A stretch of 64,000 bases of DNA, taken from assembly GCF_041886205.1 (NCBI RefSeq), contig NZ_CP169029.1. The stretch is one strand, 5' to 3'. Source of the DNA: Escherichia coli. Its GTDB lineage: Bacteria; Pseudomonadota; Gammaproteobacteria; Enterobacterales; Enterobacteriaceae. The position numbers are program-made. Shown here piece by piece: positions 28,401 to 34,400 of this stretch. Position 1 is the first letter of the stretch. Each line of letters starts with the position of its first letter.

Positions 28401-31400
28401 ATGCTAAGCCCGATAGAAGTAATAACCACACCGGTAACCAGTGGCGGGAATAAAGGCATCAAGCGACCGATAAGTGGCGCTAATAATGTGGTGATAAAAC
28501 CCGCGGCGATAGTGGCACCAAAGATCCCCAGCAGGCCGATATCCGGGTTCATCCCAATGGCTATCATTGGTGTTACAGCAGCAAAGGTCACCGACATAAT
28601 CACCGGCAGGCGGATCCCCATAAAGCGGCCGATACCGATACATTGCAATAATGTGACGATCCCGCAGCAAAAGAGATCCGAGCTAATGAGCATCGCAATA
28701 GCTTCTTTTGAGAGGCCCAGTCGGTCACCAATCATAAGAGGAACAGCGACTGCACCTGCGTACATGACAAGGACGTGTTGCAGACCGAGTATGATCAGCT
28801 TTCCTGGTGATAATATGCGGTCAACCTCATCAGTTGGGCGGTCTTGCCCAGAAGATGAGGGAAGTTGGGAATCTATGGCGCTCATCAGTGTTTCTCCTTT
28901 CGCCCGCCAGAGTAAAAAGCAACCGTTTACGTTAATGAAACTGTCTAAACACATGCTCGTGGAGTGCCAGTTTTTGCGAGGAAGGGGAGTTAGAGACAGG
29001 AATTGCGGAGGCAATCACATAATCGTGGTTAAACCACGAAAATGAGAAGAGAACCTGACAATGGAATTATCTGTAATTTTCTCATATTGATATTTCATTA
29101 ATCATTCTGGCATGTCGCACTCTCGCATTTAATCGTTTTTATCTGGATAGCGCTCTTTTGATCGGCAATGTTGAAATAATGAAAGCGGCATAGATTGAGG
29201 GGCAATAATTTGAACTCAGTCGCAAAATTATAATTAAAACGGTCATGCTACCTAATATATGCCCGTTTATTGCATCGCGAAATTTGAGAAGACATAACTC
29301 ATTAAATGAAAGGGATGCAAATGAATAAGTTTATCGCTGCTGAAGCTGCGGAATGTATAGGCTGTCATGCTTGTGAAATTGCCTGTGCGGTGGCACACAA
29401 TCAAGAAAACTGGCCGCTGAGTCACAGTGACTTTCGACCGCGTATCCACGTTGTAGGGAAAGGCCAGGCTGCGAATCCGGTGGCCTGCCATCACTGCAAC
29501 AATGCCCCTTGCGTTACGGCTTGTCCGGTTAATGCTCTGACTTTCCAGTCCGATAGCGTACAACTGGACGAGCAAAAATGTATTGGTTGTAAAAGATGCG
29601 CAATCGCTTGCCCCTTTGGCGTCGTTGAGATGGTCGATACGATTGCGCAGAAATGCGACCTTTGTAACCAGCGCAGTTCCGGCACGCAAGCCTGTATTGA
29701 AGTTTGCCCAACACAGGCGTTACGACTGATGGACGATAAAGGGTTACAGCAGATAAAGGTGGCCCGCCAGCGCAAAACGGCAGCAGGAAAAGCGTCATCA
29801 GACGCTCAGCCATCTCGCAGTGCAGCGTTGCTCCCCGTTAACTCGCGTACAGGGCTTCGCCATCACGGGTCAGTTCCATCATCTCTTCAGTACAATGCCA
29901 GTCTTTGTGTTGCGCGTTCTGTGCCAGACACTGTTTTTCCAGTGCTTTTAAGCCTTCGTGATCGTTCGCACGCAGCAATTCAGTACGCTCTTCCATCACT
30001 TTGTAAGGTGCCCATGACTTCGGATAAACGATGTCTGCGTCTTTGAAGGCTTCTTCCATGCTGGTGACCTGACGGAAGCTACCACCGGAGGCTTTAGCAT
30101 TGTTTTTCGCCACTTCAACCACATCCGGGATCAGGTCGTAGCCTTCCGGATGGGCCAGGGTGACATCCATACCGAAGCGAGTCATCAGACCGATGATGCC
30201 TTGTGGTACAGAGAGCGGTTTGCCATAGCTTGGAGAGTAGGCCCAGGTCATGGCGATTTTTTTACCTTTCAGGTTTTCCAGTGAACCAAAGTGTTCACGT
30301 AACCACGCGAGGTCAGCCATTGACTGAGTCGGGTGGTCAATATCGCATTGCAGGTTCACTAAAGCCGGACGCTGTGGCAGTACACCCTGCTTGTAACCGT
30401 CATCAAGTGCAGCGCCAACTTCACGCATATAGGCGTTGCCTGCGCCCAGATACATATCGTCGCGAATACCAATAGCGTCGGCGCAGAAGGAGATCATATT
30501 GGCGGTTTCACGCACGGTTTCGCCGTGAGCGATTTGTGATTTGCCTTCGTCGAGATCTTGTTGTGCAAGGCCGAGCAGGTTAAGCGCGGAAGCATAAGAG
30601 AAGCGGGTACGGGTGGAGTTGTCGCGGAATACGGAAATACCTAATCCACTATTAAAGACTTTGGTTGAGATGTTTTCAGCACGCAGTGCTTTTAATGCTG
30701 CGGCAACGTCCAGTACTTGTTTCAGTTCATCTGGCGTCTGTTCCCACGTTAACAAAAAATCTTTCTCGTGAAGGTGAGAGGTCAGCGAATTGATATCCTT
30801 AATCAGCTCATTAACAGTTTTCATCATAAAGTCCCGGTAGTGGAATGACAGGCAAAGTGGTTTATTTCACTGTGACTTGCCAAAGTGATTGGTGTTTTCA
30901 CAGCTATACCTGGGACTAACAATAAGTGTGCCAGAATTATCCACGGGGCTGCAAAAGACTAATTTGACGGATAATGTGTGGGGTTGATCACAAATTGATG
31001 CCAGCTTCCGGTTGTTTGTAAAATACGAAAACGTTTGGCTTTTTTTATCGCGTTATTTATTTGCTGCTAAGTATCAGAAATAAGATAAAGGGACAGGCTA
31101 TCCCTCGTCAGTTTGATAAACTCACTGCCGTAATTCTCATATTGATATAGAAATGTGATATCTCTTCCATAATTTCATTAGAAAGTGATAAAAATCTTAT
31201 GTTTTTATCAAAGCCAATTTCGCCTGAGTTAATATCATCATGATCTGTGAACCATCAACGTCTTCAATGATCGACTTTTAAGTAAGTCTGGAAGGTAAAG
31301 CTATGGAGCTTGCTACTACGCAGTCAGTATTGATGCAAATTCAACCGACAATTCAGCGTTTTGCCAGAATGCTTGCCAGCGTTTTGCAGCTTGAGGTTGA

Positions 31401-34400
31401 GATCGTTGATGAAAACTTGTGTCGCGTTGCCGGAACGGGCGCGTATGGGAAGTTTCTTGGTCGCCAGTTGAGCGGCAACTCACGCCTGCTCCGCCACGTC
31501 CTGGAAACGAAAACTGAAAAAGTTGTGACACAGTCTCGCTTCGATCCCCTTTGCGAAGGTTGCGATAGTAAAGAAAATTGCCGCGAAAAAGCATTTCTGG
31601 GTACGCCTGTCATTTTACAGGATCGTTGTGTTGGGGTGATAAGTTTGATTGCCGTTACCCACGAGCAACAAGAGCATATCAGTGATAATTTACGCGAATT
31701 TTCTGATTATGTTCGCCATATATCCACCATTTTTGTTTCGAAACTTCTGGAGGATCAGGGGCCAGGAGATAACATCAGTAAAATATTCGCGACCATGATC
31801 GATAATATGGATCAGGGCGTATTAGTTGTTGATGATGAAAGTCGGGTTCAGTTTGTTAATCAGACTGCCTTAAAAACACTTGGTGTTGTACAAAATAATA
31901 TTATTGGGAAACCTATCCGTTTCAGACCATTAACATTTGAGAGTAATTTTACTCATGGACATATGCAGCATATTGTTTCGTGGGACGATAAAAGTGAATT
32001 AATCATTGGTCAATTGCATAACATTCAGGGCCGACAATTATTTTTAATGGCATTTCACCAATCGCATACCAGTTTTTCTGTAGCAAATGCACCTGATGAA
32101 CCACATATTGAACAATTGGTTGGCGAGTGCCGTGTTATGCGGCAATTAAAACGACTCATTAGCCGTATTGCACCCAGCCCATCCAGCGTTATGGTGGTTG
32201 GTGAAAGCGGCACGGGTAAAGAAGTCGTCGCCCGAGCAATCCATAAGTTGAGCGGAAGACGGAATAAACCCTTTATTGCTATCAACTGTGCCGCGATTCC
32301 GGAGCAGCTTCTGGAAAGCGAACTGTTCGGTTATGTTAAAGGCGCATTTACTGGCGCTTCTGCCAACGGTAAAACAGGGTTGATTCAGGCGGCGAATACG
32401 GGCACGCTGTTTCTCGATGAAATAGGTGATATGCCATTAATGTTGCAGGCTAAATTACTGCGCGCTATTGAGGCGCGTGAAATTCTGCCGATTGGTGCCA
32501 GTAGCCCAATACAAGTCGACATTCGCATCATTTCTGCAACTAATCAGAATTTGGCCCAGTTCATTGCCGAAGGTAAATTCCGCGAAGATCTCTTCTACCG
32601 ACTTAATGTTATCCCGATAACTCTGCCACCGCTGCGTGAACGTCAGGAAGATATTGAACTATTGGTGCATTACTTTTTACATCTGCATACCCGTCGTCTG
32701 GGATCGGTTTATCCTGGCATTGCTCCCGATGTCGTCGAAATATTGCGTAAGCATCGTTGGCCCGGAAACCTGCGCGAGTTAAGCAATTTGATGGAATATC
32801 TGGTTAACGTGGTTCCTTCAGGTGAAGTTATCGACAGCACGCTATTGCCGCCAAATCTGCTGAATAATGGCACAACGGAGCAAAGTGATGTAACAGAGGT
32901 CAGTGAGGCGCACCTGTCACTCGATGATGCGGGCGGCACGGCGCTGGAGGAGATGGAAAAGCAAATGATCCGCGAGGCGCTTTCACGTCATAACAGCAAG
33001 AAGCAAGTTGCTGATGAACTGGGCATCGGCATTGCTACGCTCTATCGCAAGATTAAGAAATATGAGTTGTTAAACACATAACCTCAGTGAATCCGGCCTG
33101 AATTCAGGCCGGATATCCTTTTACTTCGTTTTCTCGCAATCCAGAACTGTATTTACAATCATCTGATACCCCGTGCAGCGACAAAGATTTCCCGCCAGTC
33201 CGCGACGAATTTCCGTAATGGTTAATGGCTTCTCGCGTGGTTTCGCCAGCATTGCCGTGGTAGCCATAATCAGGCCAGGCGTACAAAACCCGCACTGCAC
33301 TGCGCCGGATTTCGCATAAGCCTGCTGAACATGAGAAAGTTTTCCGCCTTTCGCTTCACCTTCCAGCGTGCGGATCTCTTTTCCTTCAGCCCAGGCGGCA
33401 AGGTATAAGCAACTGTCTATTGCTGTGCCGTCGACCAACACCGTACAGGCACCACATTCACCCACGCAGCACCCTTGTTTGACACTTAGCAGTCCTTGTT
33501 CGCGGAGTAATTCCGAGAGCGGCGTGCCTGGTGCGGCGTGAAGCTGAAAAGGCATCCCGTTAATGGTGCATTCGATGGTAATTGTTTCGCTGTGATTCAT
33601 TGCAATTTTCCCCCCGCCGCGGCGACGGCTTCGCTAATCACTTTTTTGGTCATCGTCTGGATGAGATGCAGACGAAACTCTTTACTGGCCCGCCATGAAG
33701 AACGCGGGGCGACATCTTGCAGGACAGATTCGCTGATAGCTTCCAGCGTTTGCAGGTTTAATGGCGCATTTTGTGCAGTCTGTTCGGCATGTTGGCAGCG
33801 AATCGGCGTTGGCGCGGCAACACCAAATGCCAGGCGTAATTCGCTGAAATTGCCGTTATCCAGTCGGCAATGTGCGGCGCAGCCAATCGTTGAAATATCC
33901 ATTGCGTCGCGCATGGCATATTTAAAATGCGCGCTGCCCGCGTGTTCTTTCGGCTGTGGCGGAAAATGAAAGGCGACGAGGATTTCGTCATGCTCAAGAG
34001 ACACTTTGCCCGGCCCGGTGTGAAAGCCATTAATCGGGACGAAACGAACACCGCGCGGGGAGTGGATCTCCAGTTTCGCGTCATAAATTAGCGTTGGCGT
34101 GGCAGAATCTGCGCTGGTGGCACCGTTGCAAATATTTCCACCGTAGGTAGCGACGTTACGGATCTGCGGTCCAGCAATGGACGTGGCCGCAGCACATAAC
34201 GCCGGGAGATGACGTTGAGTTATAGGATCTTCTATTAGCTGGGTAAATGTCGTTGCAGAGCCGATACGTAGCGAGCCATCTTCCGCCAGCGTAATTCCCC
34301 GCAGCTCCGCCAGATTATGAATATCAACAATATGGCGATAACGGTCATTGTGATGGTGGAGCTGAATCAGTACGTCAGTGCCACCGGCGAGCAGTTTGGC

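Follow-up and report, generated by a model that had tools for sequence, protein, structure and literature searches.

Gene content and deletion at the ygeV-ygeW locus

We analysed a window of 64,000 nucleotides from Escherichia coli strain wlxctx60, in which the sigma-54 activator gene ygeV (isrR) lies next to a remnant of ygeW. As the first-pass annotation had stated, ygeV (31303..33081, plus strand) is intact: its open reading frame encodes the full 592 amino acids, 591 of them identical to K-12 YgeV, and contains GESGTGKE and ESELFG as well as GAFTGA (ESELFGYVKGAFTGA) and FLDEIGDM. The protein matched Sigma54_activat (PF00158, 8e-71), AAA_lid_14 (PF25601), HTH_8 (PF02954) and PAS; with an AAA+ sigma-54 interaction domain (Walker A, GAFTGA loop and lid) and a C-terminal Fis-type helix-turn-helix, it belongs to the bacterial enhancer-binding proteins. 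A GC-rich hairpin terminator (33091..33114, plus strand) stands between ygeV and the convergent xdhC of the intact xanthine dehydrogenase operon xdhC-xdhB-xdhA (33121..36783, minus strand).

The annotation was also right that ygeW is truncated and the cluster downstream of it deleted. A deletion of 23,163 bp, which lies at a 3-bp microhomology and is not associated with an IS element, has removed ygeX through ygfS, that is, the reductive uric-acid pathway. At the junction (GTA, 29847..29849), K-12 position 3,007,242 is joined to 3,030,406, so that ygeW codon 327 now abuts ygfT codon ~176 in antisense. The ygeW remnant (29850..30827, minus strand) retains codons 1-327 of 396, identical to K-12, followed by 'AS*' as the frame continues to a stop at 29838; its OTCace domain covers only profile positions 20-107 of 157, so that the complete OTCace_N and OTCace domains and the 396 residues of a functional YgeW knotted carbamoyltransferase are not present. 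Here ygeW is a pseudogene. The ygfT remnant (29321..29846, plus strand) comprises the first ~176 of 639 codons with the 4Fe-4S domains, and its chimeric reading frame extends antisense to ygeW' up to 30046. The remnants carry no further decay. Beyond them lies the intact urate/H+ symporter gene uacT (27437..28885, minus strand), which now has the orientation of the ygeW promoter and lies downstream of it. Since no terminator-like hairpin was found on the minus strand from 30827 to 28885, transcription of ygeW' may continue across the ygfT' antisense and reach uacT.

The sigma-54 promoter of ygeW

The first-pass annotation had placed a sigma-54 promoter element aimed at ygeW, TGGCAC-N5-TTGTT, on the minus strand at 30918-30933, ~85-105 bp upstream of the gene. 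We found it there as TGGCACACTTATTGTT, within the 17-mer CTGGCACACTTATTGTT (30918..30934, minus strand), which is intergenic, on the same strand as ygeW, and ends 90 nt before the start codon (ATG, 30827). The 17-mer has GG at -25/-24 and GT at -13/-12 with exact GG-N10-G spacing, and the predicted transcription start is at ~30907, giving a leader of ~80 nt. As a bare pattern, TGGCAC-N5-TTGY was seen once against 0.45 expected, with at least one match in 34% of shuffled sequences; as consensus scans of this kind did not reach significance, they were replaced by a PSSM built from 22 other ChIP-verified E. coli sigma-54 sites (training scores 14.3-22.2 bits). By this measure the ygeW promoter ranked first of 127,968 window positions, scoring 17.35 bits against 13.1 for the next best, and the site was also the top match in each of 11 foreign loci. 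A second sigma-54 candidate in the spacer, CTGGCATCAATTTGTGA, was rejected for lack of a G at the -12 spacing. Matches in a sigma-70 promoter scan were no more frequent than in shuffled sequence, and an Rfam scan of 28800-33300 gave nothing above noise, hence no known leader RNA or riboswitch in that interval.

The foreign loci were collected with an Enterobacter orthologue as query, which resolved the problem that the first protein query returned only near-identical E. coli sequences; in a genome-contig scan with YgeV the generic AAA+ peptide FLDEIGDM dominated, and L003 was the single true orthologue. In all 11 other genera ygeV is divergent from the ygeW operon. The promoter 17-mer, including its unusual -12 GT, is invariant in 6 E. 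coli lineages and these 11 enterobacterial genera, and TGGCAC and TTATTGTTA are unchanged in the 12 genera while the flanking spacer DNA diverges. Comparison with intact-cluster strains, which the first-pass annotation had set as a test of its proposal, thus gave an identical element in K-12 as in every other lineage and genus examined. The GT at -12 has thus been conserved and does not reflect decay. Two further elements lie in the spacer. A CRP-like site TGTGATCAACCCCACACA (30975..30992, minus strand), ~40 bp upstream of the -24 element, keeps GTGAy-N6-TCrCA in 12 genera, and a native Crp site in this spacer is mentioned in PMC12507026. A PurR-operator-like sequence AGCCAAACGTTTTCGT (31025..31040, minus strand) is conserved only in the four genera having xdhABC next to ygeV.

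The RpoN ChIP data that the annotation had called for exist. Table 1 of Bonocora 2015 (PMC4591121) lists, for K-12, the ChIP-seq site OS30, which is exactly this 17-mer, 80 bp from ygeW, with low in vivo sigma-54 occupancy (FAT 3); OS29 (xdhA), OS31 (ygfK) and OS32 (ygfT) are further sites within the same cluster. An RpoN-holoenzyme gSELEX peak (53-55%) in the ygeV/ygeW spacer has likewise been reported for the identical K-12 sequence. According to PMC10602906, the sigma-54 promoters of ygeWXY and xdhABC had been identified by Reitzer & Schneider 2001; the content of that paper and of Iwadate & Kato 2019 is given here as related in PMC10602906 and bioRxiv 2022.07.24.501321. Bipartite spacing and score, an intergenic position facing the gene, conservation exceeding that of the flanks and identity with OS30 together show that the element at 30918-30934 is the sigma-54 promoter of the ygeW-ygeX-ygeY-hyuA-yqeA operon, part of the anaerobic purine/uric-acid degradation cluster. 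The first-pass label of a weak and imperfect site undersells it: the -12 GT, though non-consensus, is conserved, and the site is the best PSSM match in the window, even if its occupancy in vivo is low. As the promoter is already published, flagging it was correct but ordinary, and there is nothing new in the promoter itself.

Palindromic boxes upstream of the cluster's sigma-54 promoters

After the promoter, the best-conserved portion of the spacer is a block at 31106..31175 (no strand assigned), which we regard, from its conservation and box enrichment, as a putative YgeV enhancer (UAS). It contains the boxes TATCAATATGAGA (31135-31147) and TTTATCAAACTGA (31108-31120) together with GATATCACATTT (31151-31162). 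The underlying palindrome, T[AC]TCA-N3-TGA[GT]A, is conserved at all of the cluster's sigma-54 promoters, 100-200 bp upstream; this class of box shows a 35-fold enrichment in ygeV-ygeW spacers, and the 12-mer CTCATATTGATA occurs in 3 copies in the window against 0.29 expected. Boxes accompany the ygeW, xdhA, ygfK and ygfT promoters, and in four genera an MFS gene is preceded by a sigma-54-like site with a further box 150-190 bp upstream of it. The uacT-ygfT spacer has the box TCTCATATTGATA (29080..29092, plus strand), followed after 166 bp by the sigma-54 site of ygfT, TATGCCCGTTTATTGCA (29258..29274, plus strand), which corresponds to OS32 and is a weak motif (PSSM rank 297). Upstream of the xdhA promoter CTGGCGTAAATCTTGCC (36839..36855, minus strand; OS29, FAT 11, PSSM rank 8), itself conserved in Citrobacter, Trabulsiella and Atlantibacter, there are paired inverted boxes, TTATCACATTGAT (36975-36987) and CTCATATTGATAC (36952-36964), spanning 36952..36987 on the minus strand. 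Dyad-symmetric sites upstream of the -24 element, within the ~80-200 bp expected of a UAS, are thus common to five cluster sigma-54 promoters, and the box is probably the YgeV enhancer. IHF was considered as a binder of the box and rejected, the TTR arm of its consensus being absent.

These sites bear on the annotation's view of ygeV as an activator left beside a lost target. That view holds for the ygeW operon, which is truncated and deleted; however, ygeV is not orphaned, since xdhABC with its sigma-54 promoter OS29, the ygfT promoter remnant (OS32) and uacT are still present. A YgeV iModulon, which is rarely active, comprises xdhABC, ygeWXY, ygfT and uacT. A role of ygeV in urate use has been reported, as has induction of ygfK and ygfT by urate. 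In EHEC and C. rodentium, YgeV/IsrR has an effect on LEE expression as well, and it may therefore have targets elsewhere.

Regulation of the cluster and its fate in wlxctx60

We explain the locus by conserved sigma-54/YgeV control of the ygeW operon, a recent private deletion, and retention of ygeV for its remaining targets, a reading to which we assign a probability of about 85%. By published data, RNA polymerase-sigma-54 occupies the -24 TGGCAC and -12 TTGT as a closed complex. The divergently encoded AAA+ protein YgeV would bind the T[AC]TCA-N3-TGA[GT]A boxes ~200 bp upstream, loop to the promoter and, through ATP hydrolysis and its GAFTGA loop, open it, and the conserved CRP-like site between boxes and promoter may add catabolite control. 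The microhomology deletion has taken the uricolysis genes and left the control region and ygeV untouched, and the ygeW promoter would now drive only a truncated ygeW' transcript. Because xdhABC is still intact and has both a sigma-54 promoter and boxes of the same kind, and because the control region of uacT/ygfT also remains, ygeV may stay useful or may simply be undecayed. A wider reading, to which we give slightly better than even odds, is that the boxes are a hitherto undescribed YgeV enhancer, that the regulon would consist of the ygeW operon, xdhABC, the ygfK operon, ygfT/uacT and, in Klebsiella, Kluyvera, Raoultella and Intestinirhabdus, the adjacent MFS transporter, that the invariant -12 GT would be selected tuning, and that uacT would here be under read-through from the ygeW promoter.

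Could the boxes contain sites for a different regulator? They include TATCAA, the IHF consensus core, and resemble Fur-box half sites. On this alternative the sigma-54 site is genuine but is served by another enhancer-binding protein, or is poised and largely non-productive, and the boxes bind another AT-rich-site regulator (IHF-, Fur- or ArcA-like) rather than YgeV. The low occupancy at OS30 would fit, as would the many sigma-54 sites that have no known transcript (Bonocora et al., PMC4591121). Our literature search yielded no description of the box, no YgeV-DNA binding data and no direct proof that YgeV activates the ygeW promoter. However, the promoter has the expected position and orientation and does not vary over 12 genera, its divergent neighbour is ygeV in every case, the same box goes with five different sigma-54 promoters of the cluster, one iModulon groups these operons, and the box, as read from its letters, fails the full IHF consensus WATCAANNNNTTR. 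We consider this alternative unlikely.

Much less room is left for the other two objections. That the deletion is an assembly artefact and wlxctx60 really has an intact cluster might be suspected because, among 5,426 complete E. coli genomes, the junction occurs in that of the source strain only, and because the microhomology is only 3 bp; but the record, a closed complete chromosome, agrees with the window at 100% over 6.2 kb, NCBI annotates both remnants as partial genes, no junction repeat is present to mislead an assembler, and independent deletions have removed the same cluster in ~4.5% of complete genomes, which makes an artefact very improbable. The complete genomes that are ygfK-negative number 244. 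The idea that the promoter motif is a chance-level pattern match draws on its frequency in shuffled sequence and the non-consensus -12, whereas binding at the exact sequence by ChIP-seq and gSELEX, its first rank by an independent PSSM and its invariance amid divergent flanks speak against it; conservation and the published binding data already refute this explanation, and we give it next to no credence.

Several known systems are close to this locus. The K-12 ygeW promoter (OS30) has the same 17-mer, spacer, distance and orientation to ygeW; the difference is that the operon here breaks off after ygeW codon 327 and is joined to the ygfT' antisense. Among E. coli sigma-54 promoters whose -12 is not GC, pspG (TTGGCATGATTCTTGTA), hydN and glnH share the bipartite element and GG-N10-G spacing, and the verified pspG promoter likewise has GT at -12, but they depend on other activators (PspF, FhlA or NtrC) and have another physiological role. 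In norR-norVW, prpR-prpBCDE and zraSR-zraP the activator gene is likewise divergent from a sigma-54-dependent operon, with the sigma-54 site located between the two (norV, prpB and zraP also appear in the ChIP table of PMC4591121) and palindromic boxes 100-200 bp upstream; the T[AC]TCA-N3-TGA[GT]A box, however, is specific to the ygeV cluster, and YgeV has a PAS domain and an uncharacterised N-terminal region where those activators have a receiver, GAF or PrpR_N domain. Recurrent IS1-mediated ygeV-ygfT deletions, as in elppa5, 2018-02-2CC and H3, have likewise removed the uricolysis genes and kept uacT and xdhABC, but there IS1 is at the uacT side and ygeV is truncated in 2 of the 3 examined, whereas wlxctx60 has no IS, a 3-bp microhomology, and an intact ygeV and spacer.

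The ygeV-controlled cluster encodes the pathway by which gut bacteria degrade uric acid reductively; the enzymology of this pathway is known, and probiotic E. coli is being engineered to carry it against gout (PMC12507026). The comparative footprint consists of the invariant promoter, whose -12 reads GT, the CRP-like site and the palindromic box that the promoters share, and it provides concrete, testable targets for studying or re-engineering the regulation of the cluster; wlxctx60 represents a natural partial knockout, in which the regulator, xdhABC and the urate transporter are kept and uricolysis is absent.

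A strain-specific deletion in the urate cluster

The window is E. coli chromosomal DNA in the orientation opposite to the K-12 chromosome, and its positions 27000-33200 are 100% identical to strain wlxctx60 (NZ_AP045833.1), which originates from faeces of an Asian black bear in Japan. Here uacT (27437-28885, minus strand) is followed by a ygfT remnant (from 29321, plus), a ygeW remnant (ATG at 30827, minus), ygeV (31303-33081, plus) and xdhCBA (33121-36783, minus). The corresponding ygeW-ygfT interval of K-12 spans ~23 kb and carries ygeX, ygeY, hyuA, yqeA, yqeB, yqeC, mocA, ygfK, ssnA, ygfM, xdhD, xanQ, guaD, ghxQ and ygfS. 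The first-pass annotation had described ygeW as truncated and the downstream cluster as deleted, and we found both to be the case: ygeW residues 1-327 are those of K-12 and are followed by AS and a stop codon, which leaves the OTCace domain incomplete, and 23,163 bp are gone between ygeW and ygfT. A three-way alignment placed the junction at 29847-29849, where K-12 3,007,242 (ygeW codon 327) is joined to 3,030,406 (ygfT codon ~176) in the configuration ...CCCCGTTAACTCGC[GTA]CAGGGCTTCGCC..., with a microhomology of 3 bp and without an IS element. Among 5,426 complete E. coli genomes, only that of the source strain has this junction, and since the ygeW and ygfT remnants show no decay, we conclude that the deletion is recent. 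The event is an ordinary case of strain-specific gene loss. The fusion also creates a chimeric plus-strand ORF of 246 aa (29306-30046), in which the YgfT N-terminal 4Fe-4S ferredoxin domains are joined to ~66 antisense ygeW' residues; a weak sigma-54 site and a palindromic box still lie ahead of it.

Loss of the urate cluster is recurrent in E. coli, as ygfK is missing from 244 of the 5,426 genomes; 5,180 genomes have the ygeV-ygeW spacer, a count close to that of ygfK carriers. IS1 adjoins uacT in all three other deletion strains examined, elppa5, 2018-02-2CC and H3 (loci L097, L098 and L099); the 5' end of ygeV is cut off in two of them, and one keeps ygeW and ygeX. These IS1-associated deletions are independent, with differing endpoints, and 2018-02-2CC has an internal stop in xdhA as well. 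IS1 beside uacT appears to make the region a deletion hotspot.

The sigma-54 promoter of ygeW

The candidate sigma-54 promoter proposed upstream of ygeW lies exactly where it had been placed, with the motif TGGCACACTTATTGTT at 30918-30933 on the minus strand (30918-30934 for the 17-mer including the leading C), its end 90 nt from the ygeW ATG. Since the bare consensus pattern was at chance level in the window (1 match vs 0.45 expected), a sigma-54 PSSM was trained on 22 other ChIP-verified E. coli sites, excluding the four of this cluster. With this matrix the ygeW site scored 17.35 bits, compared with 14.3-22.2 for the training sites, and ranked first among 127,968 window positions with a lead of ~4 bits over the next. 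The K-12 ygeV-ygeW spacer contains the identical element, and the RpoN ChIP-seq data of Bonocora et al. 2015 list it as OS30 (motif CTGGCACACTTATTGTT, directed at ygeW, distance 80 bp, fold-above-threshold (FAT) 3; PMC4591121 Table 1). Moreover, genomic SELEX with reconstituted RpoN holoenzyme gave a peak within the same spacer (PMC8743547), and PRECISE-1K defined a 'YgeV iModulon' in a report that credits the sigma-54 promoters of xdhABC and ygeWXY to Reitzer & Schneider 2001 (PMC10602906). Thus, the earlier observation and its interpretation were both correct, the promoter being real and conserved, and it is already published. The same ChIP study assigned three further sites to this cluster, OS29 at xdhA (CTGGCGTAAATCTTGCC, FAT 11), OS31 at ygfK (GTGGTGCGATTGTTGCT, FAT 26) and OS32 at ygfT (TATGCCCGTTTATTGCA, FAT 3) (PMC4591121); OS29 (36839-36855, minus) and OS32 (29258-29274, plus) are present in the window, and OS31 was lost by the deletion.

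We gathered ygeV orthologues at 69-87% identity and compared their loci in 11 non-E. coli genera (Enterobacter sp. Bisph1, Citrobacter amalonaticus, Klebsiella aerogenes, Serratia silvae, Kluyvera, Intestinirhabdus, Raoultella, Trabulsiella, Atlantibacter, Pluralibacter and Cedecea). Every one of these loci has ygeW-ygeX-ygeY-hyuA-yqeA divergent from ygeV, and the site ahead of ygeW gives its best sigma-54 PSSM match across 13-18 kb (11/11). In the alignment yTGGCAC-rn-TTATTGTTA is invariant, and this extends to the non-consensus T at -12, amid scrambled spacer DNA; six E. coli lineages agree, their promoter changes being neutral and confined to variable positions. The -12 element had been called imperfect, and the non-consensus T is indeed there; its invariance across genera and E. 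coli lineages makes it a conserved property of the promoter and not decay. The pspG site in the same ChIP table likewise has a non-consensus -12, TTGTA (PMC4591121).

Conserved boxes and further candidate control elements

The exact 12-mer CTCATATTGATA is present in 3 copies in the 64-kb window vs 0.29 expected with one mismatch allowed, and each of them precedes one of the cluster's three sigma-54 sites retained here: before ygfT (29081-29092), in the ygeV/ygeW spacer (31136-31147) and before xdhA (36953-36964). K-12 has a fourth, fully palindromic version, TATCATAATGATA, upstream of the ygfK sigma-54 site. A generalised box, T[AC]TCA-N3-TGA[GT]A, was found in 11/11 foreign spacers, at a density 35-fold higher than elsewhere (12 matches/5.3 kb vs 12/remaining 186 kb), and several of the matches outside the ygeV-ygeW spacers are themselves regulatory. 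The xdhA promoter, TTCTGGCGTA..T.TTGCCT, is kept with an inverted box pair in Citrobacter, Trabulsiella and Atlantibacter. In Klebsiella (L088 9787-9999), Kluyvera (L090 9813-9981), Intestinirhabdus (L091 9794-10170) and Raoultella (L092 9837-9995), a TATCACTCTGAGA box directly past ygeV is followed after 150-190 bp by a sigma-54-like site, itself 60-77 bp ahead of an MFS transporter gene, which suggests that this gene is an additional YgeV-regulon member not found in E. coli. The transporter of these four genera has 549 aa. We regard the boxes as a putative YgeV enhancer; our literature search found no report of YgeV binding to them. This architecture is the only result here that is possibly new, and it points to a YgeV enhancer.

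A GTGAy-N6-TCrCA element is conserved at 30975-30992, in the stretch that separates the boxes from the ygeW promoter, and is consistent with the 'native Crp-binding site' and the glucose repression of uricolysis described in PMC12507026. PurR-operator-like sequences were matched twice vs 0.17 expected, as AGCCAAACGTTTTCGT in the ygeV-ygeW spacer (31025-31040, minus), conserved only in the four genera having xdhABC beside ygeV, and as AAGCAACCGTTTACGT directly upstream of uacT (28917-28932, plus); a computational study assigned ygeW to a putative PurR cluster (PMC4576408). The ygeV promoter may have its -10 region in a conserved TAsTATCAT block (E. coli form TAATATCATCATG, 31230-31242, plus), which precedes the ygeV ATG by ~65 bp; TTGATA is conserved at 31201-31211.

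YgeV and its remaining targets

In agreement with the first-pass annotation, ygeV is intact and encodes a full enhancer-binding protein with PAS, Sigma54_activat, AAA lid and HTH_8 domains and the motifs GESGTGKE, ESELFG and also GAFTGA; it differs from K-12 YgeV only by N180S. No Pfam family matches its N-terminal ~160 residues (31303-31780) at E<=0.001; a Cys-rich stretch in this region reads CEGCDSKENC. Full-length YgeV-like proteins of 34-39% identity occur in Bacillota including Clostridia (L004, a Clostridium sp. MAG; L006-L008 and L010, Bacillota). YgeV has been renamed IsrR, as an indole-induced protein promoting LEE expression in EHEC and C. rodentium (PMC9426417); such an effect, direct or not, does not conflict with local purine-cluster control.

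In the source strain the reductive uric-acid pathway is absent (XdhD-YgfM, YgfK, SsnA, HyuA, YgeW/YqeA, YgeY and YgeX; membership from PMC12507026). The ygeW and ygfT promoters are now convergent across 1.66 kb of fused remnants, and since no terminator-like hairpin was found on the minus strand of the ygeW'-uacT interval, transcription from the ygeW promoter could, judging from the sequence, run into uacT in the sense direction. Of its sigma-54 targets, ygeV still has at least xdhABC in intact form, and the uacT/ygfT control region is retained too.
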